A stretch of 64,000 nt of DNA from an uncultured Candidatus Binatia bacterium (GTDB lineage: Bacteria; Desulfobacterota; Binatia; HRBIN30), in NCBI GenBank assembly GCA_964524885.1, contig CAZGEJ010000008.1:53462-117461 (forward strand), written 5' to 3'. The translations under genes and the position numbers were made by a program. Below are positions 3,001-43,780 of this stretch, piece by piece. The notes under the pieces were generated by a model. That model ran no database searches, had not been told where the DNA came from, and saw only the letters and a list, made by a program, of their open reading frames with translations. Numbering within the stretch: position 1 is the stretch's first letter; each line of letters opens with the position of its first letter.

Positions 3001-6000
3001 TCGTTGAGGCTGGCACCGTTGTCGATGCCGGAGAGCCAATCGCTCAGGCTGATCTTGCCGCTGACGAGTTCGGACAGGGTCAACGAGTCCGGCAAACCGA
3101 TGAGGTCGCCGACGCCCGCTTCCTTGGCAGCCTGACCGACCAGCGAGAGGTCGAGTTCGACGTCGAGGCCGCCGTCGCGGATCAACTCACCTAGATCGAA
3201 GTCGGGGATGAGGTTGATGTAGTCGCCGACGGTGACCTCGTTGGCGATGGTGACCAGGTTGCCGTTGATGACGAGGTTGCCACCAGCCGACAGCTCCATG
3301 CTGCCGCTGTGATCGAGGAGATCGTGCAACCCGTAGACGGTGTCGCTGGCCGTCAGGTTGGCGTTGATCGTCAGGTTGCCGCCGGCGTCGAGGATGATCT
3401 GGTTGCGCGTCGTATCGATCGCGCTGCCGACCGTGACGTCGCCGTCCGCGGTGCCCTTGAAGGAGTGCCCGTCGATGTCGACCCCGGCTTGGATGACCAA
3501 GGTATCGGTGGCGTTGTCGGTGTCGTCATCGATCGTATCGATGCCGATGGCGCCCCAGACGGAGCCCCAATAGAGATCGCTGAGCGAGGGATCCGGCTCA
3601 CTTCCGTAGCCGTCGAAGCCGGCGAGCACGGTGATGTCGCCGCTGGTCGCCTGCAGATCGTTGCTGACGACGATGCCGTCGCCGGCGCGCAGGCTGATGT
3701 CGCCGCCGCGCGCGACCAGGTCGATGGGGACATTGAGGCTCGTTCCCGAACCGATGTCGATACCTTCGGCGAACAGCGTCAGGTTCGAGGGCAGCGAGAC
3801 GCCGGTGTTGCCGAAGAGCGTCACGTCGCCCGCCGGACTGCCCGGGTCCCCATCCGTATCCTCGGTCGACAGGGTCCGGCCGCTCGGCACGGTCAAGGTG
3901 CCGGCGGTGGTGATCTCCAGATCGCCGTCGGGGGTGCGCAGATCGACGGGGACGGTCCACGAAGCGCCGGTGGCGACGTTGAGGCTACCCGCCGTGATCG
4001 TCATCGTATTCGGCGTCGTCAATGCGCCCCCGGCCTGCACCGTGAGCTTGCCACCGTCATCGACGCGCCCGGTATGTTGCGTCAGCAGGCTGGTGTTGGC
4101 ACCGAAGGAAATCGCATCTCCTGCCTCCAGGGTCAGGTCGCCGGCGTTACCGCCCGCCGGATCGATGGTCGAGAGAGCGACGTTGGCGTTGACGGTGATG
4201 TCTTCGGCGGCCACGAGCTCGAGATCGCCGTCCGTCGCCGTCAAGCTGAGGGGGACGGTGAGGCTGGCACCCGATTCGATGTCGATCGCGCCCGCCGCGA
4301 ACGTCATGCTGCTTGGCAGGGTCACGCCCGAGGGGCCGTGCAGGATGACGCTGGCGCCATCACCGGCCTCGGCACTCTGATCGGCACGCAGGATCACGCC
4401 GGAGTTGACGATGACGCTGCCGCTGAAGTCGCCCGGATCATGGATCGAGATGCCCGCCCGCAGTTCGATGTTGCCGGACTGGTCGGTGTCGGTAGTATCG
4501 AGGGTCCTGCTCGAGCTGACCGTGACATTGCCGCGTCCCCAGACCTCGATGTTGCCATCGGAGGGGATCAGATCGCGGACGACCACGTGGGGGATGATGT
4601 CTTCGACGGGGATTTCGAAATCCATGCCGAAGGTATTCGTACCGTCGAAGAAGATCGAGTAGAGCGGTTCGAGAAGGTCGCGCAGCGGATCGATGGCGGC
4701 TTCGTTGAGAATGTCGACGAGGGTGCGATCGCCGAGGGCGGTGCGGGCATCATTCATCGAAGGAGTGCCCGGCAGGATGTCGCCGATGAGGTCTTCGACG
4801 GTGAACTGCCCTTCGATGAGGTCGGCGAGATTGACGCTGTCGGGCAGGTCGACGGTATCGAGGTTGCCGAGCAAGTCGAGGACGCTGTTGAGCGTATCTT
4901 CGACGCCGGTTAGGTCGACCTCGATGTCGAGATCGACGAGCTGGGCTAGGTCGTAGTCGCCATAGGCGGCGAGGTAACTCGACAGGCTGATCTCGTCGGC
5001 CGAGGTCGTCAGGTTGCCGTTGATGGTGACGGATCCTCCGGAGTCGATGTCGATGCTGCCACTCGAAACGCCCAGGTCGGTGAGACCGTGCGTGCCGTCG
5101 GAGGCGTTGAGGGTGCCGCTGATGTCGACGTTGCCGCCGGCGTCGAGGTCGATGGCATAGCGCGTGGCGGTCAGCGAGCCGTCGATGTCGAGGCCGTTAC
5201 CCGCGACCAGGGTGATGCCGGTTCCGCTCAGGTCCGCGCCCGTGCTGAGGTTGAGCGACCCCCCCGACGATGCGTACACGGAGCCATTGGTCGCCGCGAG
5301 GTCGACCGGGATGGTGAAGTCACCACTGCCGGTGGAAGCGAGGCTGAAGCTCCTGCCCCGGACGAGGCTCGTGCTCGGGATGGTGATGGACGACCCCTGG
5401 AGGGTGACCGTACCGTCGCCGGTGCTACCGTCCGAGTTCAGGGCCGACAGATCGACTCCGGTATTGAGTGTCAGGGCGCCGCCAGCGGTGACGCGAATGT
5501 CACCGTCCGGAGCCGTCAAGTCGTACGTCAGGGTCAAGGCGCCGCCCGAGGCGAGGTCGTACGAACCACCGTCGAGTGTCAGCCCCGTGCCGAGGGAAAG
5601 CGTTGCATCGGAAAGGAGGGAGATTTTGTTCCCATCGTTGGCGGCGCTGCCGTTGGCGTCGAGCGTGACGCCGTTGCCGATCGTCAGGTTTCCGACCGCA
5701 TCGAGGGTCAGGGCGCCGGCGGTACCGCCGCCATCGTCGAGGGTGGTCAGCGAGCGACCGTCGGGCACGCTCAGCGCCCCACCCACTACGATCGAGATGC
5801 CGCCGTCTTCGGCCGCCATGTCGAACGGAATCGTCAGATCGCTGGCCGAGGTGATTTGGTAAGCGCCGGCATCGATCGTCGTCGAGGCCGGCAGGGTCAG
5901 CGTGCCGCCGGCCAACAGGGCGACGGTGCCGCCGTTGTTGGCCCCGGGGCGATCCGCGTCGAGGGTGACCGATTCTTCGAGCAGGATGTGACCGCCGGCG

Positions 6001-8528
6001 GTGAGTCGGATCGAGCCGGCGGTGCCCGTCGTCGGAACGGTCGACAGCGTCACACCATCGAGAATCGCCAGGTCGCCTTTGACACTGATTTCGATGTCGC
6101 CGCTGGGGCTGAACATGTTGAAGGGGATGGTGAACCCGGCGAGCGACTCGAAGTCGAAGCTCCCGGCCACCGGGGTAAGGGTCGTCGGCGCAATCAATTC
6201 GCCGCCCGCGAGGAGCGACAGCTTGCCACCCAGGTCGGAGGTCGCGGCGTTACGCGCCACCAGATCGACGCCGCTGCCGAGAGTGAGGTCGATGCCGGCT
6301 TGCAGGGTGAGATCGTTCGAGCGACCGCCGCCGTCACTGTCGAGGGTCGACAGGTCGACGTTGTCGGACAGGGTCAGTCCCTCGGCGCTGTAGATGCGCA
6401 GGTCGCCGTCCGGCGTCGCAATGCTGTTGGTGATGGTCAACGCCCTGCCCGACTCGATGTCCAAGCTGCCGGCGTCGAGGGTGGTGGAGGACGGCAGGGT
6501 CAGTGCGCCGTCGGCGTGGATCGACACGGCGCCGCCGTCGTTGGTCGCGCTGCCGTTGGCGTCGATCGTCATGCCCGTGCCGAGGGTGAGGGCGCCCGTG
6601 GCGTCGAGAGTGATGTTGCCGGCGACGCCGCCCGCCGCGTCGACGGTGTTGACGGTCGTACCGTTGCTGAAGCTGAGGTCGCCGCGGACATGCACCTCGA
6701 TCGCACCATCGGGAGCCACGAGGTTGAACGGGATGAGCAGACTGGCGCCGGTGTCGATATCGATGCTGCCGGCGTCGAGGACGAGATTGACCGGTACGAG
6801 CAACTCGTCACCTGCGTTGAGCGTCACTTTGGCGCCGTCGTTGTTGGCACTGCCGTTGGCATCGATCGAGGCACCGGACTCGAGCGTCAGGTCGCCAGCG
6901 GCTTCGAGGCTCAGGGTGCCGGCGGTTCCCCCGGCACTATCGACCGTCGACAAGCTAGTATCGCTGGCGATCGTCAGGTTTTGGCCGCTCTTGATGGAAA
7001 TCGAACCATCCGGTGCGACCAAATCGATGGCGAAGCGCAGCGATGCGCCCGACTGGAGGGCGAACGAGCCACCTTCGAGCGTCATGTCGGCGGCGAGGTT
7101 CAAGGCATCGCCAGCCTTCAGAGTCACGGCACCGCCGTCGTTGGTCGAGGCCGAGTCGGCATCCAAGGTGGCCCCGCTGGCGATCGTCAAATCGTCACCG
7201 GCTTCGAGCGTGAGCGCACCGGCACGATCGCCGACGTTGGCGTCGGTGGTCAGCACTTGGCTGCCGCTGCCGATGGTGATGTCGTCGCCTGCCTTGAGGG
7301 TGAGGCTGCCCGCATTCTGTCCGGCGGTGGCATTGGAGGTGCGCAGGTCCGAGCCGCTGGCGACGGCGATCGAACCGGAGACGAACCACGACTCGCTGGC
7401 GCCGCCGGTATTGTAGCTCCCCGAGAGCTGCAGCAGGTCGACGTCGAGTTCGATGCCGGCGATGCCCGACACACCGGCCCCGCCGGTGAGCAGCGGCGTC
7501 GAGAAATCGAGGGAACCGCCGTTGCCGATTTGGAACGACGTATTTGCCATGGCGGCGCTGTCGACCGCCTCGACCGTGACGTTGCCGCCCGACTTCGAGC
7601 CCTTGGCGCGGGTGGCGATTTTGGCGCCGCCGCTGAGGCTGACTTCGTCCGCCTCGATGCGGATGTTGCCGCCGTCGACGGTATTGGACGCATCGCTGGC
7701 GATCGTACCGGAGACGCTGATGTCGTCCTCGGCGAGAATGACGATGTCGCCGTTCTCGACGGCGATTTGCGCGCCCGACGCGTAGCTGTTGGTGTTGACG
7801 ACGTCGGAGAAGCTCGGCGCGGTACCGGTGAAGACGGCACCCGATTGGATGGTGCCGGTGTGTTGAACGGCACCGGCATCGATGCGCACGTCGCCGATGG
7901 CGTTGACGGTACCGTCGATACGAACGACGCCGCGATCGTCGATCGGGGTGGTACCGAGCAGCACCTTACGCGCCTCGCTGTCACGCGGTGTCGTTCCGTC
8001 GAAGAAATCGTCGACGAAGTCCTTCGTCGAGGTGGCGACGGACAAGGTGCCGACGTTGACGACACCGCCGGAGCCGACGACGAAGCCGTTGGGGTTGGCG
8101 AAGTAGACGTTGCCGCCGATTTGCCCGCCCTTGATCGAATTGAGCACGCCGTGGATGTCGGTCTTTTCGTCGGTGACGATGTTGAGGAGGTTCTTGGTCG
8201 TACCTGGCAGGTGAAGATTGACCACCTTGCCGGTGTTGACGTCGAACCGGGTGAACGAGTTGAAGGCGTTGTCGCCGTTGACCGTGGTCGTCGTGACGTC
8301 GGTCACGTTGCCGGAGGTCGCGAACGAAGTGCCGGTGCGTCCGTCCGTCGCCATCGAGCCGTCGGCGCTGACGACCTGTGCCAGGGTGACGCTGCACAGG
8401 TGCGACAAGATGACGGTCGAGACCAGGGCTTGGCGGAGGATCTCGCGACGCAGGCGGCGCATGGTCCGACGCCGCCGCGCCGCTTGGCGCAATCGCAGCA
8501 ACTCTGTCGTTCGACGTCCTTCCACCAT
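1..8528 (-). CDS. Giant TpsA-like filamentous haemagglutinin family exoprotein (two-partner secretion substrate), partial; the 3' end lies beyond the window start
   Basis: Manual reverse-complement translation from ATG at 8528 gives MVEGRRTTELLRLRQAARRRRTMRRLRREILRQALVSTVILSHLCSVTLAQVV..., an extended Arg-rich signal peptide. The TPS-domain motifs follow: GDNAFNSFTRFDVNTGKVVNL, LLNIVTD, GGNVYFANPNGFVVGSGGVVNVGTLSVAT (matching NW.SFNIG / LNRV / NG.VFLINPNGI.FG / VNVG.L.AST of the haemagg_act domain). After that come long Gly/Asp/Thr/Leu-rich beta-helical repeats. The frame stays open to position 1. No listed minus-strand ORF shares this frame, and an open-ended ORF would not be reported by a stop-requiring ORF finder. 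An alternative start is the in-frame ATG at 8462 (MRRLRREI...). Confidence 0.8.
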   Translation of the reverse strand, partial: MVEGRRTTELLRLRQAARRRRTMRRLRREILRQALVSTVILSHLCSVTLAQVVSADGSMATDGRTGTSFATSGNVTDVTTTTVNGDNAFNSFTRFDVNTGKVVNLHLPGTTKNLLNIVTDEKTDIHGVLNSIKGGQIGGNVYFANPNGFVVGSGGVVNVGTLSVATSTKDFVDDFFDGTTPRDSEARKVLLGTTPIDDRGVVRIDGTVNAIGDVRIDAGAVQHTGTIQSGAVFTGTAPSFSDVVNTNSYASGAQIAVENGDIVILAEDDISVSGTIASDASNTVDGGNIRIEADEVSLSGGAKIATRAKGSKSGGNVTVEAVDSAAMANTSFQIGNGGSLDFSTPLLTGGAGVSGIAGIELDVDLLQLSGSYNTGGASESWFVSGSIAVASGSDLRTSNATAGQNAGSLTLKAGDDITIGSGSQVLTTDANVGDRAGALTLEAGDDLTIASGATLDADSASTNDGGAVTLKAGDALNLAADMTLEGGSFALQSGASLRFAIDLVAPDGSISIKSGQNLTIASDTSLSTVDSAGGTAGTLSLEAAGDLTLESGASIDANGSANNDGAKVTLNAGDELLVPVNLVLDAGSIDIDTGASLLIPFNLVAPDGAIEVHVRGDLSFSNGTTVNTVDAAGGVAGNITLDATGALTLGTGMTIDANGSATNDGGAVSIHADGALTLPSSTTLDAGSLDIESGRALTITNSIATPDGDLRIYSAEGLTLSDNVDLSTLDSDGGGRSNDLTLQAGIDLTLGSGVDLVARNAATSDLGGKLSLLAGGELIAPTTLTPVAGSFDFESLAGFTIPFNMFSPSGDIEISVKGDLAILDGVTLSTVPTTGTAGSIRLTAGGHILLEESVTLDADRPGANNGGTVALLAGGTLTLPASTTIDAGAYQITSASDLTIPFDMAAEDGGISIVVGGALSVPDGRSLTTLDDGGGTAGALTLDAVGNLTIGNGVTLDANGSAANDGNKISLLSDATLSLGTGLTLDGGSYDLASGGALTLTYDLTAPDGDIRVTAGGALTLNTGVDLSALNSDGSTGDGTVTLQGSSITIPSTSLVRGRSFSLASTGSGDFTIPVDLAATNGSVYASSGGSLNLSTGADLSGTGITLVAGNGLDIDGSLTATRYAIDLDAGGNVDISGTLNASDGTHGLTDLGVSSGSIDIDSGGSVTINGNLTTSADEISLSSYLAAYGDYDLAQLVDLDIEVDLTGVEDTLNSVLDLLGNLDTVDLPDSVNLADLIEGQFTVEDLIGDILPGTPSMNDARTALGDRTLVDILNEAAIDPLRDLLEPLYSIFFDGTNTFGMDFEIPVEDIIPHVVVRDLIPSDGNIEVWGRGNVTVSSSRTLDTTDTDQSGNIELRAGISIHDPGDFSGSVIVNSGVILRADQSAEAGDGASVILHGPSGVTLPSSMTFAAGAIDIESGASLTVPLSLTATDGDLELVAAEDITVNANVALSTIDPAGGNAGDLTLEAGDAISFGANTSLLTQHTGRVDDGGKLTVQAGGALTTPNTMTITAGSLNVATGASWTVPVDLRTPDGDLEITTAGTLTVPSGRTLSTEDTDGDPGSPAGDVTLFGNTGVSLPSNLTLFAEGIDIGSGTSLNVPIDLVARGGDISLRAGDGIVVSNDLQATSGDITVLAGFDGYGSEPDPSLSDLYWGSVWGAIGIDTIDDDTDNATDTLVIQAGVDIDGHSFKGTADGDVTVGSAIDTTRNQIILDAGGNLTINANLTASDTVYGLHDLLDHSGSMELSAGGNLVINGNLVTIANEVTVGDYINLIPDFDLGELIRDGGLDVELDLSLVGQAAKEAGVGDLIGLPDSLTLSELVSGKISLSDWLSGIDNGASLNDLRDALGFTTLLDVLEASHFFTLTDLGVDVVTSDIPGAQAILDLLGLDDLNDSLRGIVPDILLRDLLPSDGNIETDVGGNITVNAGKILRTDDHEEQAGNIELFANGGTVTIQTGAVLDAEDSALVNDGGYVRLRSASGISFPSTLDLQAGGMEFDAGTGSIHLPFSLSALDKNLEIEAGGNITTATGITLSTRDTDGSGDAGDLTIDAGGNLTLASAVQVLAERSDRNNDGGHLILHAGGTLSTADNTSIKAGSMDIESGAAWEVPYNLNTPDGSMSIVVGGDLTFDDDVTRLSTLDSDGSGNSGNLTLEADGLLSLVSRVTLEAETAARTNDGGRLRLYGGTGLPLANLVHTAGSIDFESGVNLDVPFSLNAKDGTMKLTAGGNLTLANGITLDTLDTDGGGNPSAMTLTARTGMVDPGSNVTLQVERPAVDDDGALLKITAGNGIDLAAPGFKYYAGSLDWTSGVAQNVPIDLIVTDGDIKVSTTTGLLSINPGRTISVVDTDGGGFAHDVYLHGGNDVSIPSNVNLYAQDIQISSGANLSQVLIDLAPLDGGNIRMLADDDLTVRTDLYAPDGYIELEAGSDITINAGLLVEAENIRGTAGDNLTTNSNLLATESNVSLDLAGLITGERTITLEELVEFLQEFAFEELLGSEGNVELDAGGTITVPNGVTVTADGGTIDLEGGRVVVENGATLYADAGSMVLGDLLIPDGNIDIDADEKEGVATSGDVVISGKLQTDSGDFNLDDLIDIIGALDIDDVLGASVGGVSLSVLLQVAGLDAVTGVLNTIGNFDLMSVITPIADFLGIDSVDDALDIVDQLTFGDLLTLGGEIDVEADVDLEITSTGVLSTRNIAGTDPLNDASIGDSGPMFLRGLNVTITGAEILAHVEEGSSHRAGDIDITVENEDLTFDLDLEELAAAEGDQAVLQAFFEETLDQLLDEMVELIGDPVACFSDPFGCEFLVNREDLAMTITDSTIRGNDVELLGHAADRIGFVKDV

Positions 8529-8530
8529 AG

Positions 8531-8538
8531 CCCCCCCC
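8531..8538 (-). repeat. Homopolymeric G8 tract (C8 on the plus strand) 2 nt upstream of the tpsA ATG, within or replacing the Shine-Dalgarno region
   Basis: Plus strand reads ...ccaccatag cccccccc tg...; on the minus strand this is caGGGGGGGGctATGgtg. Confidence 0.7.
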
Positions 8539-8617
8539 TGTCGCTCGATCGTCGTGCTCATGGATCCGAAATCCCGATTGGTCTTCGTCGCTAGGCTGGC
8601 GTCACGCATGATCGTCC

Positions 8618-11600
8618 TCACTCCGGATCCGTGCAGTCGACGCGGAATCGCGCCGTGCCGCGGCCGTTGAGAGCCGCTGAACACGACGGCCGCGCATCTT
8701 GGCAGAAGCCGATGCCTGCCGTCGGGCAACTCGGTGCCTCGCAGCCGTCACCATCCTCACCACCCGTCGGAGTACAAGTCGTAAAGCCCTCCTGGCCGAT
8801 GTACTCCCAGCAGCAATCGCCGAAGGTGGGGAACCCGGTCCATCCGCCGTCGGCGGCGATGCCCACCTGGTCGATGTTGTCGAGCGGGGCGTCGGCCTGG
8901 ATCCGACACGTGGTCACGGCATTGTCCGACAGATTGTCGTCGTTCGGTGTCAGGTTGAGCGTCAGGCGTCCCCCCGGCCACTCCGCCGGGTCGACCGAGC
9001 CGCCATCGCTGCTGGTGACGCTGAAGCGGTGTGTACCCTGCGGGCAGCAGATCCCTGGGCTCTGGCAGAGCCCGGAGCCGTTGCAGCGCTCGACTCCGTC
9101 ACAGGCGCGATTGTTGCTCGTGCACACGGAGCCGAACGCGTCGTTGCCGTTGCAGTCGTCCGCGTCCTCGCGGCATTGTTCGCTACAGTCCGAATCGCCG
9201 TCGACTCCGGGGCATGGATTGCCCGAGCCCACGCAGGCTCCGGCGCCATTGCACGAAGAAGTGCTGGTACAGAACAGGCCGTCATTACACGGCTTACCGC
9301 TTGGGTTGTTGCCGGTGCAGGAGTACGTTCCGCCGGTTTCGACACAGGCCTCCGTGCAGTCGGAGCTGTTGAGGCCTTCGTCGACCAGCGACTGGCACGG
9401 ATCGTTGCTGCCGACACAAATGCCGGTCGCGTTGCAGCGGTCCGTCGTCGTGCACGCCAGGCTGTCGTTGCAACTCGAGTTGAGCGGGTCGTTGCCGTTA
9501 CAGTCGTCATTCGCTTCGCGGCACTGTTCACTGCAATCGCCGTCGCCATCGGCGCCCTGGCACGGCGTGCCGGTACCGATGCAGAAGCCGTCGCCGTCGC
9601 AGCGATCGGTGGCGGTGCAGAACAAGCCATCGTTGCACGACACGTTGGCCGGGTCGTTGGTCGAGCAGTCGTCCTCCGCCTCGTTGCAGCGCTCCGAGCA
9701 GTCGCCGTCGCCATCCGGTCCTGGGCACGGATCGCCGGCATGGACGGTACAGGCACCGGCACTGCACCGGTCGGTACCGTTGCAGAAGGTACCGTCCGAG
9801 CAGTTGCTGAGATTGGCATCTTGCGCCGTACAGCTGCCGACGCCGATACAGCCATAGCCGCTGCAGGCCGTCTCGTCGGCGCACGCCTCGCTGCAATCGC
9901 TGTCCAGGTCGCCCAGCTTGAACTGATTCGCGGGCAGGTAACACGGGTCGTTCGGGTCGTCCGGGTCGCTGCCGATGATACAACGCTTGTTGCACGGATC
10001 GGCGCTGCGTACGCACGCACCCGCGCTGCACTTGTCGGCATCGCCGTTGCAGAAATCGTCGTCTCGGCAATCGAGGGCATCAGCCGACACGGCGGTGCAG
10101 CTCGACGTCGCTTCGTCGCAGGCATCTTGGCACGTCGCCGACAAGCCTACGCCGCGACCCAGCAAATCCTTGCTGTCGCCCGGACAGGGCGGCGCGCCGC
10201 CTTGGCATGTGCCGGCGACACAGAAGTCCTGCGCCACGGTGATGTCGGTGCCGTCGATCGAGAACACCTCCGAGGCGCAGGCGCGAGCGGCGCAGCGCCC
10301 ACCGTTCGGACAGTCCGCGTTGCCGGCACAAGGCTTGCCGGCGTCGGGTCCGTCGCAAACGTCGGCGCAGTTGTTGCTGCGGCAGTCCGAGTCCTGCGTG
10401 CAAGCGTTGCCGACGTCCGCGCCGGTGCAGAACAGTTGGTCGTTGCAGGGGGTGCCGTCCGGATCGGGGAAAGTGCAGGTGTTGGCGAACTCGTCACACG
10501 ACTCGCTGCAATTGATGTCGTCGTCGCCGCCATAGGCGCCGCCGTTGGGACAGGGATCGATGTTTTCGCTGACGCACAGACCGCCGGCGCAGACCTCGGT
10601 GCCGTTGCAGAACAGGCGATCGTCGCATGAGGAGCCATCCGGGTCATTGCCCGTGCAGGCATCGGCGCTTTCGTCGCACGTCTCGGAGCAGTCGGTGTCG
10701 GCATCGGGTCCGGCACACGGATCACCCGTGTGAATCGTGCAGGAGCCACCGCTGCACGTATCGTTGCCATTGCAGAAGAATCCGTCGTCGCATGGCGCCT
10801 GGTTGGCCTCGTGGCTGCAAGCGCCGAAGCCGTTGCACTCGTCGTCCGTGCACTGGTTGTCGTCGCTTTCGCAGACCTTGCCGGCAGGGGCGTAGCCGTT
10901 GTCGCGACAGCTGCCGCTGCCGTTGCAGGTGTCCTGCACGACACAGGCGCTACCCGGGTCGCCACATGGCGTTCCGGAGATTTCGAAGTTCGGGCGACAG
11001 ACCCCGGCACCGTTACACGAATCGGGGTTGTTGCATTCGGTATCCGTGCCGTCGCCGCACGTCGTACCGGCATCGACGAAGCCCTGGTCGAGACACTCGC
11101 CGGAACCGTCGCAGGTATCTTGGTTGATGCACTCGGTGCCCGTATCGCCGCAGGCCGTACCTACGGGCATGTCGTTGTCGCCGCACGCGCCGGCACCGTC
11201 GCAGGAGTCGGGTGCCGTACAGGCATTCGAGGTGGGATCGCCGCAGGTCGTGCCGGCCGACTTGAAGCCCTGATCGGCGCATTGGCCGCTGGCATCACAG
11301 GTGTCTTGGTTGGTGCACTCGGTGCCGGCGTCACCGCAATGGCTGCCTACCGTCGCGTGGTTGACGGCACAGGTACCGGAGCCGTCGCAGGTGTCGGGAT
11401 TGGTGCATTCGGTATCCGACGCATCGCCGCAGGGTGTACCGGCCGCGACGAAGCCGGCGTTGCGACATTGGCCGAAGCCGTTGCAGGTGTCCTGGACGAC
11501 GCACTCGCTGCCGGCGTCGCCGCAATCGGTGCCGCTGACGGCATGGTTGCCCTGGCAGGTACCGGCTCCGTCACAGGTGTCGGGGTTGGTACAGGCGTCG

Positions 11601-14296
11601 TCGGTAGGATCGCCGCAGGTCGTGCCAGAGGGGCGGAAGCCGTTGTCGCTACAGCTACCGCTACCGTCGCAGGTATCCTGCACGGTGCACTCGTCGCCGG
11701 CGTCGCCGCACGTCGCTCCCGACGGGGCGTCGTTGGCCAGACAAGTCCCTGCCCCATCGCAGGCGTCGGGGTTGGTGCATTCGCTGTCGAGGGCCGAGCC
11801 GCAGGTGGTTCCCGCCGAAAGGAAACCGTTGTCGACGCAGCTACCGTCACCGTTGCAGGTATCTTGCACGGTGCACTCGTCGCCGGCGTCGCCGCACGCG
11901 GTGCCCACGCTCAAGTCGTTGTCCTGGCAGGTACCGGCACCGTTACAGGTATCCTGAGCGCTGCACTCCGTCGCCGGGTCGCCGCAGGTCGTGCCGCTCA
12001 CCTTGAAGCCGTTGTCGCTGCACGCACCGGTGCCGTCGCAGGTATCTTGGTTGACGCATTCGGTGCCGGCGTCGCCGCACGAAGCTCCGGCCACGAGGTC
12101 GTTCGGCTGGCAGCTGCCCGTGCCGTCACAGGTATCCTGGCCACTGCATTCGGTCGCAGCATCACCACACGTTGTGCCGCTCGGCCGGAAGCCCTGGTCG
12201 GAGCAACTCCCCGTGCCATCGCAAATGTCCTGGACGGTGCACTCGTCCCCGGCATCGCCACACGGCGTACCATGCGAGCGAAAGCCGTTGTCCGAACAGG
12301 TGCCAGCACCGTTGCAGGTATCCTGCACGGTGCACTCGTCCCCGGCATCGCCACAGGAGGTACCGGCGGCGAGGAAACCGTTGTCAGAGCAACTGCCGGT
12401 GCCGTCGCAGGTATCCTGCACCGTGCATTCGTTGCCGGCGTCGCCGCAGGTCGTGCCCGTGGGCAAGTCATTGGGAACGCACGAGCCCGTGCCGTTGCAC
12501 GTATCCTGGCCGCTGCATTCGTTGGCTGGATCGCCGCAGGTCGTGCCGGAGGCGACGAAGCCGTTGTCGGTGCAGCGCCCCGACCCATCACAGAGGTCCT
12601 GGTTGGTGCACTCGTCCCCGGCATCGCCGCAGGTCGTGCCGGCGGAGCGATGGTTCACTTGGCAACTACCGGCGCCATCGCAGGTGTCTTGTTCGGAGCA
12701 TTCCGTCCCTGGGCTGCCGCAGCTCGAGCCGGCGGGGGCGAAGCCATTGTCGACGCAACTGCCGGTGCCGTCGCAAGTGTCGCGCAGGGTGCATTCCGTG
12801 CCCGGATCACCGCAGCCGGTACCCGGCGCCAGATCGTTGGCGAGACAGCTGCCGGCACCGTCACAGGTATCTTGCTCGGAGCACTCGGTGGCCGGATCGC
12901 CGCAGGCCGTGCCGGCGGTGGCGAAGCCATTGTCGACGCAGCTTCCCGAGCCGTCGCAGGTGTCTTGTAGCGAGCAGGCATCGGGGTCGCCGCCACAGGC
13001 GGTTCCGGCGGGCAGGTCGTTGGCGATGCAGTTGCCGTTCCCATCGCAGGTATCGGCCAGGCTGCAGCCGTTCGCCGAGGCGTCGCCGCAGGTGGTGCCG
13101 AAGGGAGCGGCCATGTTGATGCAACCGCCCGAGCCGTCGCACGCGTCGACCGTACACGGGTTGCCGTCGTCGCATTCGACGTCGGGGTTGGTGCCGACCT
13201 GCACCGGCAGGCACGCGCCGTCGGCACCGCCCGTCTTGTCGCCGACGCAGGCCATGCAGCCGGAGTCACAACGGGCATCGCAACAGACGCCATCGCTGGA
13301 GCAGATGCCGGACTGACACTGATCGTCGCTGCCGCAGGCGCGGCCGAGAGGTGCCGGCGTTTGGGTCGGCGTGGCGGAAGGCGGGGGCGAGACGAGCGGC
13401 GGCGAGGTGGCGGTCGGCGTCGGCGTCGGCACGCTCTGGTACATCGATTCGTGCAGGAAGTCGGCGCAGGTGTCGACGCTGTCACGCGTGCAACTCTGCA
13501 GACTGGTCAAGTCGTTGCCGCAGGTGTCGAGGCCCGTGCTCAGCATGCCGGTGTCGCAGCGCTTGGCGATGCCGCCGGCGAGCTTGTCGAGGACGCCGAC
13601 GTACTGCTTGTACATCGGGTTGTTGGCGGCATCGACCTGGCTGCAATCGACGCTCTCCCAGCCGGGACGCTGGCGGTCCTTGTTGAACTGGCACTTACCG
13701 CGCAGCTGCAACACCTTGACGCCGTACTTGCGCGCTTCCTTGCCGACCGCCTTCTGGCAGCTGATCGCGGCGCGATCGTCGAGACCGGCTGTCGGCGTAC
13801 CGTAAACGTCGGTGACGATGCCTTCGATGCAGGCATCGGCGAGACACTTGAGGCATTTGCCTACGTCACTGTATCGCTTCAGTTCGGGGACGAAGGCATC
13901 GCAGGGGGCGGGGCAACCGGCGAAGCCGAGCGCCGCCGGGCCGACGGGGGCGTCGGCGTCGCAGCGCGAGGTCATGCGGCTGAAGGCAGAAGCCGTCTGA
14001 CCGGCGATGGCGTCGATGCCGTCGCCGTAACCGGCGGCAACCCAGGTGCTGGGATCGGCGCAGTCGAGCGTCGGCGGTGGCGGCAGGTCACCGGCCATTT
14101 GGTCGGCGTAGCAGTCGGTGTAGACGCGCAACACTTTGTCGAAATAGGCGCCGGCGCTGCTGTTGATGGCGCGGCGGCACTTGGCGCCGCCCGAGTCGAG
14201 CTGCCCCTCCTGGGCACCCGCGAAGTAGAGGGTTCCGGCGCCGATGCCGAACGCGAGAATCAATCCGAGTCGGATCACCGTGTTGCGTGTGCGCAT
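8618..14296 (-). CDS. Secreted cysteine-rich tandem-repeat protein (1892 aa): N-terminal Cys-containing domain, Pro/Thr linker, ~21 tandem ~31-aa four-Cys repeats, then ~10 C-x-D-x-x-F-C-N-G...PC (DUF4215-like) units
   Basis: ORF with signal peptide MRTRNTVIRLGLILAFGIGAGTLYFAGAQ and GGGGG 9 nt upstream of the ATG. Repeats such as CGDPATECSEQDTCDGAGSCLANDLAPGTG recur in tandem. The C-terminal half carries CDDGFFCNGNDTCSGGSCTIHTGDPC-type units. These resemble Myxococcales cysteine-rich repeat proteins. Confidence 0.8.
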   Translation of the reverse strand: MRTRNTVIRLGLILAFGIGAGTLYFAGAQEGQLDSGGAKCRRAINSSAGAYFDKVLRVYTDCYADQMAGDLPPPPTLDCADPSTWVAAGYGDGIDAIAGQTASAFSRMTSRCDADAPVGPAALGFAGCPAPCDAFVPELKRYSDVGKCLKCLADACIEGIVTDVYGTPTAGLDDRAAISCQKAVGKEARKYGVKVLQLRGKCQFNKDRQRPGWESVDCSQVDAANNPMYKQYVGVLDKLAGGIAKRCDTGMLSTGLDTCGNDLTSLQSCTRDSVDTCADFLHESMYQSVPTPTPTATSPPLVSPPPSATPTQTPAPLGRACGSDDQCQSGICSSDGVCCDARCDSGCMACVGDKTGGADGACLPVQVGTNPDVECDDGNPCTVDACDGSGGCINMAAPFGTTCGDASANGCSLADTCDGNGNCIANDLPAGTACGGDPDACSLQDTCDGSGSCVDNGFATAGTACGDPATECSEQDTCDGAGSCLANDLAPGTGCGDPGTECTLRDTCDGTGSCVDNGFAPAGSSCGSPGTECSEQDTCDGAGSCQVNHRSAGTTCGDAGDECTNQDLCDGSGRCTDNGFVASGTTCGDPANECSGQDTCNGTGSCVPNDLPTGTTCGDAGNECTVQDTCDGTGSCSDNGFLAAGTSCGDAGDECTVQDTCNGAGTCSDNGFRSHGTPCGDAGDECTVQDICDGTGSCSDQGFRPSGTTCGDAATECSGQDTCDGTGSCQPNDLVAGASCGDAGTECVNQDTCDGTGACSDNGFKVSGTTCGDPATECSAQDTCNGAGTCQDNDLSVGTACGDAGDECTVQDTCNGDGSCVDNGFLSAGTTCGSALDSECTNPDACDGAGTCLANDAPSGATCGDAGDECTVQDTCDGSGSCSDNGFRPSGTTCGDPTDDACTNPDTCDGAGTCQGNHAVSGTDCGDAGSECVVQDTCNGFGQCRNAGFVAAGTPCGDASDTECTNPDTCDGSGTCAVNHATVGSHCGDAGTECTNQDTCDASGQCADQGFKSAGTTCGDPTSNACTAPDSCDGAGACGDNDMPVGTACGDTGTECINQDTCDGSGECLDQGFVDAGTTCGDGTDTECNNPDSCNGAGVCRPNFEISGTPCGDPGSACVVQDTCNGSGSCRDNGYAPAGKVCESDDNQCTDDECNGFGACSHEANQAPCDDGFFCNGNDTCSGGSCTIHTGDPCAGPDADTDCSETCDESADACTGNDPDGSSCDDRLFCNGTEVCAGGLCVSENIDPCPNGGAYGGDDDINCSESCDEFANTCTFPDPDGTPCNDQLFCTGADVGNACTQDSDCRSNNCADVCDGPDAGKPCAGNADCPNGGRCAARACASEVFSIDGTDITVAQDFCVAGTCQGGAPPCPGDSKDLLGRGVGLSATCQDACDEATSSCTAVSADALDCRDDDFCNGDADKCSAGACVRSADPCNKRCIIGSDPDDPNDPCYLPANQFKLGDLDSDCSEACADETACSGYGCIGVGSCTAQDANLSNCSDGTFCNGTDRCSAGACTVHAGDPCPGPDGDGDCSERCNEAEDDCSTNDPANVSCNDGLFCTATDRCDGDGFCIGTGTPCQGADGDGDCSEQCREANDDCNGNDPLNSSCNDSLACTTTDRCNATGICVGSNDPCQSLVDEGLNSSDCTEACVETGGTYSCTGNNPSGKPCNDGLFCTSTSSCNGAGACVGSGNPCPGVDGDSDCSEQCREDADDCNGNDAFGSVCTSNNRACDGVERCNGSGLCQSPGICCPQGTHRFSVTSSDGGSVDPAEWPGGRLTLNLTPNDDNLSDNAVTTCRIQADAPLDNIDQVGIAADGGWTGFPTFGDCCWEYIGQEGFTTCTPTGGEDGDGCEAPSCPTAGIGFCQDARPSCSAALNGRGTARFRVDCTDPE

Positions 14297-19440: not shown

Positions 19441-20481
19441 ATGCATCGCTACATCCGCTCGATCGGGCTCCGCCTCGCGCTCGCGCTCTCCCTCTGGGTC
19501 GGCAGCGGTACGCCGGCGTGGGCCGTCGCCGCCGACCTCGGCGAACTACTCCCGGCTCTCGGCTTCGACCAGGACGACGCCGACGACCTGCTCTCGGGCA
19601 AGGTACTCGCCGGAGAACTGACCGAAGGTGGCGGCAAGGAGTTGGCGATCACCCTCGCTCTCTTCGTCAAGGCCCCCCCGAGCAAGATCGCGCACGCCGT
19701 CCGCGACGGCGAGACGCTGCACGCCTCGCGCGACGTACTCGGCACAGCGACGCTCACCGACGCTGCAACCGCCGCCGCCGCATTGGCCAAGATCTCCTTG
19801 CCCGACAAGGAAGTGGTGGCTCTCTCGCAAGCCGAAGCCGGCTCCGACTTCAACCTCTCCAGCGACGAGATCGCCGCCCTGCGCGCGGCAGCCGCAGGGA
19901 AGTCTGCCAAGGAAGTGGCCACCGACGCCAACCTGCGCGCCGCGGTCGCCGATGCCTACCGCAAGGCCTTGGCGCAGCGCCTCGCGGCCTACCAGGCACG
20001 CGGCGTCGCCGGTATCGCCGCCTACGATCGCGGCGGCAGTCGCTCGCAACCATCCGACGAACTCGCCGGCGCCCTCGGCCGCGACGCCGTCCTGCGGCAA
20101 CGCCAGCCGGAAGTGTACGCCGCATTGGAATCGTTCCCGAAGAAACCTCTCGCCGGCGCCGAACATCAGTTCCTCGGCCTGTTGCAGGACGCCAACGGCC
20201 GTCCGGCCATGGTGCTGTCACATCGGATGTTCGTCGATCTGCCGCACGGAGCCCTGCTGGCCGAGCGACAATTCTTCGTCGGCCATTCGTACAACTCATT
20301 GCAAGTCTTGATCGGTGTCATCCCCGTCGACGGCGGTTCCGTGGTGTTCTATCGCAACCGCACCTTCACCGACCAGGTCACCGGCTTCGGCGGCGCGGCC
20401 AAGCGCGGCATCGGCGAGACGATGATGCGCGACGCCATCTCGGCCAAGCTCGAAGCGATTCGCAGCAAGGTCTTCGAATGA
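19441..20481 (+). CDS. Secreted hypothetical protein (signal peptide MHRYIRSIGLRLALALSLWVGSGTPAWA)
   Basis: ORF with GAGGAG 7 nt upstream of the ATG at 19441; an alternative start is 19420. Confidence 0.55.
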   Translation: MHRYIRSIGLRLALALSLWVGSGTPAWAVAADLGELLPALGFDQDDADDLLSGKVLAGELTEGGGKELAITLALFVKAPPSKIAHAVRDGETLHASRDVLGTATLTDAATAAAALAKISLPDKEVVALSQAEAGSDFNLSSDEIAALRAAAAGKSAKEVATDANLRAAVADAYRKALAQRLAAYQARGVAGIAAYDRGGSRSQPSDELAGALGRDAVLRQRQPEVYAALESFPKKPLAGAEHQFLGLLQDANGRPAMVLSHRMFVDLPHGALLAERQFFVGHSYNSLQVLIGVIPVDGGSVVFYRNRTFTDQVTGFGGAAKRGIGETMMRDAISAKLEAIRSKVFE

Positions 20482-26770: not shown

Positions 26771-27598
26771 TCAGGAACGCCGGGCGCGCGCCACCATGCG
26801 ATCGGCGAGTGCATTGGTGAGACGACGCGGCAGCAACTTCTGCAACCACCAGGCGAAACGGGCGCGCCGGCCCGGGATGATCAGAAACTGTCCACGCTCG
26901 AGGCGGTCGATCATGTAACGGCAGCCCGCATCGAGGTCGACCACGCCGGCGAACAACTTCATCGCCGCCGTCTCCGGCGGGCGATCGCGCCGCTCGGACC
27001 GTGCCATCGGCGTGTCGATCTCGGGCGGACAGATCAGGCTCACCGCGATGCCGCGGGGTCGGCATTCGGTCCGCAGCACGCTACCCAACCCGACGACGGC
27101 ATGCTTCGACGCGGCGTAGCCGGCCTGACCATAGGCGGTGGTCAGGCCGGCGAGAGAAGCGACGAGGGCCAGATGCGAACCCGCCTGCATGTGCGGCAAT
27201 ACGGCAGCCGCCAAGTGGCGCGTACCGAATACGTTGATCCGCACCATGTCCTCGAACCGCTGCGCCGGAAATTCGAGAAACGGGCGCGAGAACCCGCCGA
27301 CGCCGGCGGCGTGGAAGACCACCCGCGGCGGACCGAGGTCGCCGACGACCCGTTCGACCGCAACGGCCAAGCCGGCGGCGTCGGTGACGTCGACGATTTC
27401 CGTCAGCACGACCTGCGCCGCGGAGCGCCGGTTCGCTTCGATCGCCGCCACGACCGCAGCATCGAAATGGCGGTCGAACAATGACAGCGATGCACCCCGA
27501 CCGGCATAGAGTTCGGCCACGCGACGCCCGATGCCGCTACCGGCGCCGGTGACGAGGACGTGATCCCAGCTGGCGCCCGACATGCGACTCACCCGCAT
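26771..27598 (-). CDS. Short-chain dehydrogenase/reductase (SDR)
   Basis: TGAGSGIG Rossmann motif and a YxxxK catalytic motif (YAASK); overlaps the upstream regulator gene by 10 bp. Confidence 0.8.
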   Translation of the reverse strand: MRVSRMSGASWDHVLVTGAGSGIGRRVAELYAGRGASLSLFDRHFDAAVVAAIEANRRSAAQVVLTEIVDVTDAAGLAVAVERVVGDLGPPRVVFHAAGVGGFSRPFLEFPAQRFEDMVRINVFGTRHLAAAVLPHMQAGSHLALVASLAGLTTAYGQAGYAASKHAVVGLGSVLRTECRPRGIAVSLICPPEIDTPMARSERRDRPPETAAMKLFAGVVDLDAGCRYMIDRLERGQFLIIPGRRARFAWWLQKLLPRRLTNALADRMVARARRS

Positions 27599-30525
27599 AG
27601 AGCGGCGTGCAGCGCAGCGATTCGTTGCCGGGCGCGCTCGACGTCGACGCCCGCCGGTCCGGACGGATGCGCGGCCAAGCTCGCCTCGAGGTCGGCCAGC
27701 GCCGGCCCGACTTCGCCGCGTCGTTGGCGCTCGTAGGCAAGCGAGGTGGAGGCCCGCAGATGGAGGAGTCGGGAGCCTTGTTGCTCGGCGATGTCACAAG
27801 CCCGGCGGTACGCGTGTTCGGCCGCAGTCGGTTGCTGGCGTCGCCGCGGTCGCGAGCCGTGCGCCAGGATGTCGCCGTGCAACCTCCAGAACTCGACCAG
27901 CAGGTGCGCTTCGCCGCCCTGCTCGCAGGCGGCGAGGCTGGCGTCGACGATGGCGGCGGCCGCAGCGACGTCCCCACCGAGGAGGAACGTCTCGGCGAGC
28001 ACCTGCCGGTGGTTCAGCAGGTTCTCGGCGTCGACGCGGTCCTGCAGTGATGTCAGAACTTGCTGCATCCTCGCCGTCACCGCGCCCGACGGGTGCTCCA
28101 GCCACTCCCGGTAGAGACGATAGAATTCGACCCGCAGCTCGAAGTAGGCGAGATCGTGGCGCCGACAGTGGGCGTTGGCGAGATGATACAACTCGTCCAA
28201 GAGTGTACGACTGCGCTGCAAAATCACCGCGTGCAACGAGACGACGATGACGGCCGCATAACCCCACGGGAGGTCGACGGCGGCGGCCAGCTGCACAGCG
28301 CGACGCACCGAGTCCTCGGCAGCGGCGTACTCCCCCAGGTGAGCCAGCGCGATCGAGCGCCAGGCCTCGGACTCGGCCACGGGGTCGACGTGAATCGGTA
28401 CACCTGCCGCGGCGGGAAAGCCCTGGGCCCTCTCGATGCTCTCGAGACTGGCGCGGAACTCCCCCTTGCCGATGTGCAAGCGAGCGGCGCGGATATGGCT
28501 GTAGAAATGCAACCCCTCCTGCACCGGAGCATCGGCGATCACGTCGAGGAGGCGGTCGACGATCGGCTGGGTTGCGTCGATCCGACCCAGATCGAGGGTG
28601 ACCGAGCTGATACCGAGCAAGGCGCGCACCCGCTCGCGCACCGCCCCCGCCGCCTTGGCGTGCGTCTCGGCATCGGCGAACGCCTGCGCCACGGCCGGGT
28701 GGGCGAACCCGTGGAGGCCGGCCAAGACGTTGCCGAGGGTAAGTAGAACGCGGGCCCGTCGCAGCTCGATACCGTCCATCTCGCCGACGAGGTCGAGATG
28801 GGTCTGGGCCCGCTGCAGCGAGCGCAGAGCTTCGTGGTAATCACAGCGGCCCATGGCGACGAGGGCCGCCTGCTCGCGATAGGTTGCGGCGCGATCATGA
28901 TCGAGCGCCGCCTCGAAGTGCATCGCCAGACGCAGTGCCCCTTCACCCGGCCGTTGGGCATAGAGTCGCTCGAGGTGGCGTCCGATGCGCTCGTGCAGGC
29001 GTCGCCGTTGCGACGGAGCGATGCGGCTGTAGACGGCGCGCTGATACAGGACGTGAGTGAAGCGGAAGACCTCGTCGCCTTCGGCGGCGCCGCTGCGCGT
29101 GCCGACGCCGAGGCGCAGGTAGGCGCCGCGCTGCACGACTCCGTAACCGAGATCACCCAGCGCGTCGGGATCGACGTCGAGGGCAGCGCTCAGCAAATCG
29201 AGCGTCGCCTCGTCCCCCGCTACGCTCGTGGCCTCGAGGAAGCGCAGCATTTCGGGTGACAAGCCACTCAGCTGGAGTTCGATGAGGTCGCGTAGATCCT
29301 CGGGCAAGCGCGGTACGAATCGATCGAGGTCACTGGCCAGTTTCCAACCACCGGCGTCGGGGCGTAGCCATCCCTCTTGCCGCAGCTGGTCACAAACGGC
29401 GCGTACGAACAACGGATTGCCGCCGCAGTGCCGACCGACGGGCTCGGCGAGGCGCATGCCGAGATCCTCATCCCCGAGCAGGTGCCCGAGACAGGCGCCC
29501 ACTTCAGCGACACTGAAGGCCGCCAGCGGGAGCACTTCGACGCTCTCGCGGCGCCGCAACTGCGCCGCCATCGGCACGATGGAATGGCCGTGCACGAGAG
29601 CGTCGACGGGCCGATAGGTGCCGATGAGCAGCAAGCGCGCCGGCGCCGTGCTCTGGCACAGCACGGGCAGCAGTTCGACCGTGGCCGTATCGGACCAGTG
29701 CAGGTCTTCGAGGACGAGAATCAGAGGCAAGTCCCGCGTCAGCGCCGCCATCAAGGCATCGGCTTCGCGCACCAGTCGTTGGCCGCCCTCGCCGATGAGC
29801 GAGCGTGCCAGCACGGCTTGCTCCGACGGGCGCAGGAGCCACGGCATTTGGGCCAGCCATCCCGGCGCATGCCGCCGGGCCGCATCCTCGACCAAGGCGC
29901 GGCGCGAGCCGAGCGACAACTCGCCGAGCGCCCGCAGCAGCGGGGCATAGGTTTCCGTGCTCCCATGGGACTCGATGCACGGCGCGCGCGCCACGATCGC
30001 ATCGGCGGCACCGACGAGAAACTGATCGACCAACGTCGTCTTGCCGCCGCCCGGTTCTCCGGTGATGAAGACGGCTCGGCGTTCACCCGCCTTCGCCGCC
30101 GCCAGCGCCGCGTCGAGCCGGGCCAGTTCATGGGCACGTCCGACGAAGCCCAGGACCGCGCTCGGCGGCGGCGATCGCAGGCTGGTGTCGCCGACCTCGG
30201 CGAGAAAGCGGTAGCCGCGCCGCGGCACCGTTTCGATGAAGCGGCGTCCATCGCGACCGTCGTCGAGCAGGCGGCGCAGCTCGCCGACGACGTTGGTCAT
30301 GGCGTTCGGCGTCACCGCCGTATCGCCCCAGACCGCGTCGTGCAGTTCCTCCGACGTCACCAGCCGACCGCAGTGGGCGACCAAGTACCGCAGCAGCGCC
30401 AACACCTTCGGGCGCAACGGCAGGTCCAGTTCGCCGCGTCGCAGACGGCCCTCCACCATGTTGAGCTCGAAGGGGCCGAAGGTGACGATCGCTGCTGCCG
30501 CAGCCATGGGTTCGAGTGGACTCAT
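27589..30525 (-). CDS. Large transcriptional regulator: OmpR/CadC-type winged-helix DNA-binding domain plus AAA/STAND-like ATPase plus TPR region
   Basis: N-terminal FGPFELNMVEGRLRRGELDLPLRPKVLALLRYLV...VPRRGYRF (trans_reg_C). Walker A GEPGGGKTTL. A long helical TPR-like C-terminus. The start is taken at MSPLEP (30525) rather than the ORF's upstream ATG at 30663. Confidence 0.7.
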   Translation of the reverse strand: MSPLEPMAAAAAIVTFGPFELNMVEGRLRRGELDLPLRPKVLALLRYLVAHCGRLVTSEELHDAVWGDTAVTPNAMTNVVGELRRLLDDGRDGRRFIETVPRRGYRFLAEVGDTSLRSPPPSAVLGFVGRAHELARLDAALAAAKAGERRAVFITGEPGGGKTTLVDQFLVGAADAIVARAPCIESHGSTETYAPLLRALGELSLGSRRALVEDAARRHAPGWLAQMPWLLRPSEQAVLARSLIGEGGQRLVREADALMAALTRDLPLILVLEDLHWSDTATVELLPVLCQSTAPARLLLIGTYRPVDALVHGHSIVPMAAQLRRRESVEVLPLAAFSVAEVGACLGHLLGDEDLGMRLAEPVGRHCGGNPLFVRAVCDQLRQEGWLRPDAGGWKLASDLDRFVPRLPEDLRDLIELQLSGLSPEMLRFLEATSVAGDEATLDLLSAALDVDPDALGDLGYGVVQRGAYLRLGVGTRSGAAEGDEVFRFTHVLYQRAVYSRIAPSQRRRLHERIGRHLERLYAQRPGEGALRLAMHFEAALDHDRAATYREQAALVAMGRCDYHEALRSLQRAQTHLDLVGEMDGIELRRARVLLTLGNVLAGLHGFAHPAVAQAFADAETHAKAAGAVRERVRALLGISSVTLDLGRIDATQPIVDRLLDVIADAPVQEGLHFYSHIRAARLHIGKGEFRASLESIERAQGFPAAAGVPIHVDPVAESEAWRSIALAHLGEYAAAEDSVRRAVQLAAAVDLPWGYAAVIVVSLHAVILQRSRTLLDELYHLANAHCRRHDLAYFELRVEFYRLYREWLEHPSGAVTARMQQVLTSLQDRVDAENLLNHRQVLAETFLLGGDVAAAAAIVDASLAACEQGGEAHLLVEFWRLHGDILAHGSRPRRRQQPTAAEHAYRRACDIAEQQGSRLLHLRASTSLAYERQRRGEVGPALADLEASLAAHPSGPAGVDVERARQRIAALHAALCG

Positions 30526-30682
30526 CGCACCACGCCCGCCCTTACCACAGAGCGGACGAGCGCTTCGACCCTTCGCCAACGAAAACTCCCGCCGCGAGCA
30601 CGCGCGGGCTGCGGCTCGACAGCAACCGCCGTATGCGCCAAAAGCAGGCTTCGCCTCGTACACGACACCGGGAGGAACGGAG

Positions 30683-43030: not shown

Positions 43031-43780
43031 GTGTCGCTCTCGGAACACCCCTCGCCCCCGGTGGTCGCGGCGCGCGGCTTGATCCGCCGCTTCGGCACGG
43101 TGCAGGCGCTCGACGGTCTCAACCTCGACATCGCCGCCGGCGAGGTCGTGGCGCTGTTCGGCCCCAACGGCGCCGGCAAGAGCACGCTGCTGCGCCTGCT
43201 GGCGACGCTGGTGCGACCCACCGCCGGCGAACTCTCCCTGTTCGGCAGCACCAAGGGCCACGCCGCCCTGCGCCGGCGTATCGGTTTCGTCGGCCACAAG
43301 AGCTTCCTCTACCCCGACCTGAGCCCGATCGAGAACCTCGAATTTTACGCCCGCCTCTTCGGCGTCGCCGACCCGGCGGCGCGGGCCCGCGCCGGCCTCG
43401 AAGCGGTCGGCGTCCGCGGCTGGGCCCATCGCCCGGTCCGCACCCTGTCGCAGGGCATGGAACAACGCTGCGCCATCGCCCGCGCCTTCGTACACGACCC
43501 GGACCTCTTGCTGCTCGACGAGCCGTTCAGCGGCCTCGACGCCGACGGCGTCGCCATGCTGCAGGGCCTGTTGGTCGAGGCGCGCCGCGCCGGCAGGACG
43601 GTGGTGCTGTCGACCCACGACCGCGCCAGTGGCCTAGCCTCGAGCACCCGCGCCGTGCTGCTCTCACGCGGCAAGGTGGCCTGGGACGGCCCCCCCGTGG
43701 ATGACGCGACGAGCGCCTTCGCGCAGGCCCACGCCCAGGTCTTCGTGCGCGCCGCCGCCGAGGCCCGGAGATCGGCATGA
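43031..43780 (+). CDS. ccmA: Cytochrome c biogenesis haem exporter ATP-binding protein CcmA
   Basis: Walker A GPNGAGKST, ABC signature LSQGMEQR, Walker B LLLLDEP; followed by ccmB, ccmC and ccmD with overlapping ATGA junctions. Confidence 0.85.
   Translation: MSLSEHPSPPVVAARGLIRRFGTVQALDGLNLDIAAGEVVALFGPNGAGKSTLLRLLATLVRPTAGELSLFGSTKGHAALRRRIGFVGHKSFLYPDLSPIENLEFYARLFGVADPAARARAGLEAVGVRGWAHRPVRTLSQGMEQRCAIARAFVHDPDLLLLDEPFSGLDADGVAMLQGLLVEARRAGRTVVLSTHDRASGLASSTRAVLLSRGKVAWDGPPVDDATSAFAQAHAQVFVRAAAEARRSA

Follow-up and report, generated by a model that had tools for sequence, protein, structure and literature searches.

Variation in the length of homopolymer tracts is a real and known means of phase variation in genes for TpsA proteins and other adhesins. 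In the coding sequence (CDS) of Bordetella pertussis fhaB, a G10 tract lies at about 1.08 kb, and clinical isolates hold mixtures of G9, G10 and G11 (PMC7446907, PMC1891110). In Haemophilus influenzae, a repeat of heptamers within the 5' untranslated region (5'-UTR) of hmw1A tunes this gene (PMC12721329). In Mycobacterium tuberculosis, the G7 tract of glpK and a tract located 144 bp upstream of espR vary recurrently, and the espR tract changes both the folding of the 5'-UTR and translation (PMC11898584). The poly-C tracts of Bordetella fim2, fim3 and fimX have lengths of 7-22 nt and act by altering the geometry of the promoters that they overlap, which have been defined experimentally (PMC1891110). 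The present analysis concerns a run of eight G (G8) at the 5' end of a TpsA-like gene from an uncultured Candidatus Binatia bacterium (assembly GCA_964524885.1). The DNA analyzed, here called the window, is a stretch of 64,000 nt of contig CAZGEJ010000008.1 (positions 53,462 to 117,461 of the forward strand), and all coordinates given for it below are numbered from its first letter. A preliminary description had proposed the tract as a slipped-strand switch of gene expression. G8 is mutable enough in principle, and probably as mutable as any other G8, but it does not seem to be built as an on/off switch. It is read here as an ordinary G-rich Shine-Dalgarno (SD) element that would serve the start codon ATG 8528 or the adjacent GTG 8525; this reading is given a probability of roughly 0.45.

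The gene is read from the minus strand, a point left unstated in the preliminary description, in which the sequence itself was correctly given. The minus-strand reading, caGGGGGGGGctATG, consists of G8 at 8531-8538, CT at 8530-8529, ATG at 8528-8526 and, directly following it, GTG at 8525-8523. Across the tract and the ATG the minus strand reads caGGGGGGGGctATGGTGGAAGGA. The surroundings of the tract, which is C8 on the plus strand, read ...CCACCATAGCCCCCCCCTGTCG... on that strand, and positions 8520-8545 (plus) read TTCCACCATAGCCCCCCCCTGTCGCT. No other G8 or C8 run is present in the window. The 3' end of G8 is located 2 nt from ATG 8528, as had been reported, and 5 nt from GTG 8525, and the two abutting candidate start codons together occupy 8523-8528 (minus strand). 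ATG 8528, which had been named as the start codon, is a good candidate, but it is not established as the sole start: the frame is open upstream to position 8747, overlapping the 3' end of a gene for a Cys-rich protein, and includes ATG at 8609, 8561, 8528 and 8462, GTG at 8525 and TTG at 8501 and 8492.

The designation of the gene as tpsA is a fair one. The open reading frame (ORF) extends from 8528 to position 1 (minus strand), where it leaves the window at the left end; it comprises at least 2,842 codons, with a G+C content at third codon positions (GC3) of 0.86. It matches PF05860 (46.3 bits, cutoff 33.5; residues 87-330, numbered from ATG 8609), NF012204, 'leukotoxin LktA family filamentous adhesin' (150.5 bits, cutoff 60), and TIGR01901 (44.4 bits). 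The TPS secretion domain, recognized by all three models, is located at 7620-8351 (minus strand) and contains the NPNG motif, which appears in the translation as VYFANPNGF. Ahead of this domain a Sec signal peptide (8379-8462, minus strand) of classical n-h-c organization, ending in TLA/QV, was read from the translation. Its sequence, ...RRLRREILRQALVSTVILSHLCSVTLAQ, aligns with the presequences of homologues, which read ...SHLSTITLAQQ and ...THLSSILVAQQ in this region.

The candidate starts differ in the predicted strength of ribosome binding. Duplex energies with the anti-SD sequence, calculated for the canonical 16S tail (CCUCC), are -10.7 kcal/mol for ATG 8528 and -10.8 kcal/mol for GTG 8525, and -8.3, -4.1 and -5.0 kcal/mol for the ATGs at 8609, 8561 and 8462, respectively. 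Only about 1% of the 1,410 ATG contexts of the window bind the anti-SD sequence as well as that of ATG 8528; the context of ATG 8609 is in the top 5%, and that of ATG 8462 is at the 29th percentile. Confidently placed gene starts in the window have values of -9 to -12 kcal/mol, among them the Cys-rich gene with its G5 run (-10.0), UvrD (-12.3) and DUF3556 (-9.3). The suggestion in the preliminary description that the tract acts as, or overlaps, the ribosome-binding site (RBS) is supported by these predictions, as the value for ATG 8528 is in the top 1% and like those of the confident starts.

In the favored reading G8 would be an SD-like element; it occupies the short gap that separates two genes of the same orientation, both encoding giant secreted proteins, and would recruit ribosomes to ATG 8528 or to GTG 8525. 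Initiation there would yield a TpsA pre-protein with an Arg-rich signal sequence of 51 residues, as compared with 29 aa from ATG 8462. When the 5' part does the pairing, 4-5 nt remain before the start codon. Along a homopolymer the anti-SD sequence could pair in several registers, with the 3' edge at a fixed position relative to the start codon, so that gain or loss of one G should hardly change initiation. The predicted energies for G7, G8 and G9 are -9.9, -10.7 and -10.8 kcal/mol, respectively. A change of one G shifts the reading frame only when the start is 8609 or 8561; for a tract serving as an SD element or located in a leader, the predictions give no effect of G7 or G9, and such variants would be nearly neutral for the phenotype. 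Based on ribosome binding, codon usage, homologues and presequence length, 8528/8525 is tentatively taken as the start in use, 8462 is ranked second as a possible start, and 8609/8561 is regarded as an improbable one.

Several points weigh against the assignment of G8 as the SD element of ATG 8528. There is no 16S rRNA gene within the window, and the anti-SD sequence is therefore an assumed one. The 2-nt gap between G8 and ATG 8528 is below the usual SD spacing, which forces pairing by the 5' part of the tract. The searched collections contain no orthologue for a test of conservation: the N-terminal 600 aa found no relative in protein-pattern scans of genome and metagenome contig collections, and the flanking DNA, with a tract length of 5-12 allowed, found no exact match in metagenome contigs. 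The UvrD protein of the window forms a cluster of a single member, with the next relative 73% identical, and its nearest relatives that carry a name, from a Candidatus Binatia metagenome-assembled genome and from Geothermobacter, are only about 60-61% identical. Exact look-ups of this protein and of the product of the upstream gene returned no contig, and hence no second copy of the locus. Finally, the codon adaptation index (CAI) jumps exactly at ATG 8462, the pattern to be expected when a non-coding leader precedes a start at 8462. The 22 codons at 8528-8463 have a CAI of 0.34, below 99.8% of segments of the same size in the real genes of the window, and a GC3 of 0.64, as compared with a CAI of 0.83 and a GC3 of 0.91 at 8462-8397. 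The codon log-odds change from -0.48 bits per codon before ATG 8462 to +0.76 bits per codon from it onwards. Further upstream, the CAI is 0.43 for 8609-8562 and 0.42 for 8561-8529. Taken alone, codon usage favors a start at 8462.

The same boundary is an argument for regarding G8 as an inert chance run in a non-coding leader, 69-76 nt upstream of a start at ATG 8462 (8460-8462, minus strand; MRRLRREILRQALVSTVILSHLCSVTLAQ..., translated as MRRLRREILRQ...), in which case ATG 8528 would be fortuitous. The product of ATG 8462 has a textbook Sec signal peptide of 29 aa and resembles in this respect the homologue P0131 (MRRNSRRRRDLLHLAVV..., 31 aa). About three G8 runs are expected per 64 kb by chance, and the use of GGG-GGG for only one of the 124 Gly-Gly pairs in the genes of the window fits a tolerance of G runs mainly outside coding sequence. 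This explanation, the leading alternative to the SD reading, is nevertheless considered rather unlikely. ATG 8462 is without an SD, in contrast to the strong ones found in the closest homologues and in most of the stand-alone genes of the window; the alignments with homologues reach 3-10 residues upstream of the methionine encoded by ATG 8462; and long, Arg-rich n-regions with rare codons are translated in this family, as shown by the homologue locus L007.

These homologues were obtained in an exhaustive HMMER search with the window protein, which returned 2,326 relatives. With residues numbered from ATG 8609 (M28 = ATG 8528, M50 = ATG 8462), alignments start as early as residue 40-47, and many have their first aligned residue at 42-48, slightly ahead of M50 by a few residues. 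Among the best 150 of the 2,326 relatives, not one reaches further back than query residue 40. Presequence lengths in the three closest relatives, which are 44-49% identical, are 54, 46 and 31 aa, and two of these presequences are long and Arg-rich, similar to that of the 8528 product. A strong SD precedes the ATG in all three, namely GGAGG in L007, AGGAGG in L008 and a G6 run in L006. The start of L007 is unambiguous, with a stop two codons upstream of the 46-aa presequence, the GGAGG element and no alternative start, and its n-region is Arg-rich and abounds in rare codons. A long presequence with poor codon adaptation is for this reason normal in the family, and poor codon adaptation is weak evidence against translation of the n-region. 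Codon usage was thus not taken to settle the choice of start: its preference for 8462 is weakened by the example of L007. Across 135 relatives, the presequence has a median length of 39 residues (interquartile range 30-47; 90th percentile 58). Measured in this way, presequences from the starts 8462, 8528 and 8609 have 35, 57 and 84 residues; the first two are within the range of the family, and the last is at its extreme tail.

At the locus of the closest homologue (L006; protein P0129, 4,022 aa), the called start reads cgtGGGGGGcacATG, with G6 at 4233-4238, 3 nt before the ATG, an arrangement like that of G8 and ATG 8528. A G6/C6 pair is also located 114-124 nt upstream of this ATG. The G6 run was considered as orthologous conservation of G8 and was rejected as such, because the similarity of the window protein to P0129 is confined to the first ~430 aa; convergent SD usage in GC-rich genomes is the probable cause.

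Translation from ATG 8609 or 8561 would place the tract within the CDS and allow G8 to act as an in-frame frameshift switch. From 8609, G8 falls within codons 24-26 (CAG GGG GGG GCT; Q-G-G-A), so that the presequence would contain Gly-Gly, and G7 and G9 would truncate the protein at stops in codons 102 and 210, respectively. A precedent exists in the G10 tract of fhaB, in which the G9 and G11 alleles bring in stop codons (PMC7446907). The SD of ATG 8609 is a good one (ATG at 8609-8607, GGAG at 8624-8621 and GAGGA at 8619-8615, with a 5-nt spacer; 8607-8624, minus strand; top 5% of contexts), and the frame is open from 8747. This reading is held to be very improbable. None of the 150 best homologues extends upstream of residue 40, the presequence of 84 residues exceeds the 90th percentile of the family (58), and no ESPR domain was detected in the TpsA ORF by profile search. 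The CAI amounts to 0.42-0.43, and the codons GGG-GGG-GCT are a rare choice. The SD of ATG 8609 is buried in a predicted 11-bp stem. After a slip, moreover, initiation downstream at 8528 or 8462 could still give a complete pre-protein, and hence no clean OFF state. The stem itself (GGAUCCGGAGU / AUUUCGGAUCC; 8562-8630, minus strand) contains two BamHI-type palindromes and encloses the stop of the Cys-rich gene together with ATG 8609 and its SD; it has no U-tail and is thus not a classical terminator.

The length of the tract is no more than that expected by chance. The G+C content of the window is 62-71%, and 66% overall. One G8/C8 run was observed against a mean of 2.97 in 100 dinucleotide-preserving shuffles of the window, 88 of which contained at least one; for G7 matches, 5 were observed against 10.7 expected. 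G/C runs in the window appear, if anything, depleted. A contingency locus is recognized by a repeat tract that is longer or commoner than composition predicts, and G8 is neither. In a Markov analysis of Bordetella (67% GC), C/G tracts were above chance only when longer than 8 (PMC1891110). Extrapolated to a multi-megabase genome, these numbers give some hundred G8 tracts or more, too many for every one to be a contingency locus. At 66% GC, a G8 beside an ATG is to be expected several times per 100 kb, and flagging one as a contingency locus needs population data.

Nor do such tracts recur at the same position in related genes. In 80 family loci from species-representative genomes, 400 nt upstream of the mature N-terminus were scanned for G/C runs. 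Runs of at least 6 were found in 4 of the 80 loci and runs of at least 7 in none of them. The density of 5' runs was 0.13 per kb, as compared with 0.12 per kb elsewhere in the same loci; the family is without enrichment of 5' G/C runs, which equal the background. Five further homologue loci have no G/C run near the start, and a G6 is present only in L006. The slipped-strand switch of the preliminary description is left unsupported, rather than refuted, by a tract at or below chance length, the predicted neutrality of G7-G9 and the 80 loci without an excess of 5' runs. A contingency locus is defined by excess length, a position sensitive to ±1 changes, recurrence in relatives and observed polymorphism; G8 shows neither excess length nor recurrence, and its position would be sensitive to ±1 changes only with the less likely starts. 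The phase-variable readings taken together are judged improbable.

One of these readings assigns to G8 a graded effect in the leader, in which the folding of the 5'-UTR, the stability of the mRNA or transcription would depend on tract length. Tracts of G7-G8 are used in this way in high-GC bacteria, as in glpK (G7) and the espR tract (PMC11898584), a TpsA-family adhesin, HMW1A, is under 5'-UTR repeat control (PMC12721329), and the tract is located in the leader of a surface-protein gene. The folding predictions argue otherwise, and this reading is highly doubtful: the unpaired probability of both start regions is constant from G4 to G12, the minimum free energy is constant from G5 to G10, and the folding of the leader is unexceptional (z = -0.93). 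No sigma-70-like promoter and no intrinsic terminator were found within 8300-9000, and no promoter spans the tract. The absence of 5' run enrichment in the family and of over-representation of the tract also stands against this reading, and the source appears to be an uncultured environmental bacterium rather than a host-restricted pathogen. It is equally hard to credit that G8 is a mutable tract tuning initiation, or the choice among 8609, 8528 and 8462, of the giant adhesin, and thus an RBS contingency locus outside the host-adapted pathogens from which such loci are known.

Other explanations of the tract were tried and rejected. In a promoter-spacer model, inspection by eye gave no acceptable -35 element at 16-18 nt for the sequence TATGGT after the tract, and no fit to a sigma-54 site (GG-N10-GC). 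A structured leader or riboswitch is not indicated, as no Rfam match was obtained in the window and the leader fold is as stated above. A hidden frameshift or assembly error was considered as well; ahead of the tract, both of the remaining frames are interrupted by stops and lack a usable start, and G7 or G9 would give no better N-terminus. A G-quadruplex would need four G3 tracts, and only GG runs follow G8.

A G7 run is located within the TpsA CDS at 5259-5265 (minus strand; TCG GGG GGG TCG, at about codon 1088), and a slip there would certainly frameshift TpsA, unlike a slip at G8. Further 7-nt G/C runs of the window are located at 19673-19679 and 43690-43696. The latter, C7 on the plus strand, lies 4 nt before the first ATG (43701) of a cytochrome-c-assembly-like ORF; the first ~66 codons of this ORF score as non-coding by codon usage, and its true start is probably further downstream.

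The upstream co-oriented gene (8618-14296, minus strand; TGA stop at 8620-8618) encodes a secreted Cys-rich repeat protein of 1,892 aa, which consists mostly of tandem units of ~40 aa (CGDxxxECxxQDTCDGxGxC) and has no Pfam or NCBIfam match. From its stop, the distance is 89 nt to ATG 8528 and 155 nt to ATG 8462. The two genes are on the same strand and directly adjoining, and may be co-transcribed. A second giant ORF (54546-60242, plus strand; 1,898 aa) encodes a protein unrelated in sequence to the Cys-rich protein; it has no Pfam match, and NF033662, 'acidic double-disulfide repeat', was matched below threshold (30.2 bits, cutoff 41). No TpsB/POTRA/ShlB (Omp85-type) gene was matched among the ORFs scanned, between 8.6 and 64 kb, the downstream side of tpsA being beyond the window; at the homologue loci L006-L008 no TpsB gene adjoins tpsA in the DNA examined. 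The two closest TpsA homologues of a Terriglobales metagenome-assembled genome (L007, 1694-7749; L008, 1863-6407) are divergent from pairs of AAA_16 + Trans_reg_C regulator genes, and a protein of 1,024 aa with AAA_16 and Trans_reg_C is encoded at 27589-30663 (minus strand), ~19 kb from tpsA in the window. The association of such regulators with TpsA may be recurrent. In the loci L001 (3425-8914), L002 (2777-8266) and L005 (924-4270), the homologues P0002 and P0003 have tails that look out of frame, with further ORFs abutting behind them. The adhesin genes concerned thus appear to be broken by frameshifts, whether from errors of assembly or from real indels; at the break point in L001 and L002 there is no homopolymer of 6 or more.

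If G8 were a switch, homopolymer phase variation of TpsA adhesins would extend beyond Bordetella, Neisseria and Haemophilus to an environmental lineage with large genomes, in an unusual version located at the RBS. As the evidence stands, the locus presents a routine annotation point, namely which of three ATGs starts the gene, together with a G-rich SD. With fhaB, from a bacterium of ~67% GC, the locus has in common that the gene is a TpsA gene and the tract is poly-G. The fhaB tract, however, is G10, lies inside the CDS and is documented in mixed populations, whereas G8 is located at the start or ahead of it and would shift the frame only with the least likely start. With hmw1A and hmw2A the locus shares a repeat tract upstream of a gene for a two-partner-secreted adhesin; the hmw tracts consist of at least 11 copies of a 7-nt unit, with a long hairpin processed by RNase III, whereas here a single 8-nt homopolymer without significant predicted structure is found. 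M. tuberculosis, too, has short G tracts (7-8 nt) in a genome of high GC content, and one of these affects translation from within a 5'-UTR, but they show recurrent independent indels over thousands of isolates, and the folding predictions for G8 show no effect of length. The fim tracts likewise consist of C/G homopolymers in front of genes for surface proteins, in an organism of high GC content, and differ in that no promoter-like site extends across G8. From a canonical SD the tract differs in being a pure homopolymer that ends 2 nt from the candidate ATG; it resembles one in being purine- and G-rich, in its position just upstream of ATG/GTG, in its predicted pairing with CCUCC, including G-U wobble, and in an affinity like that of the other genes of the window and of the homologues.

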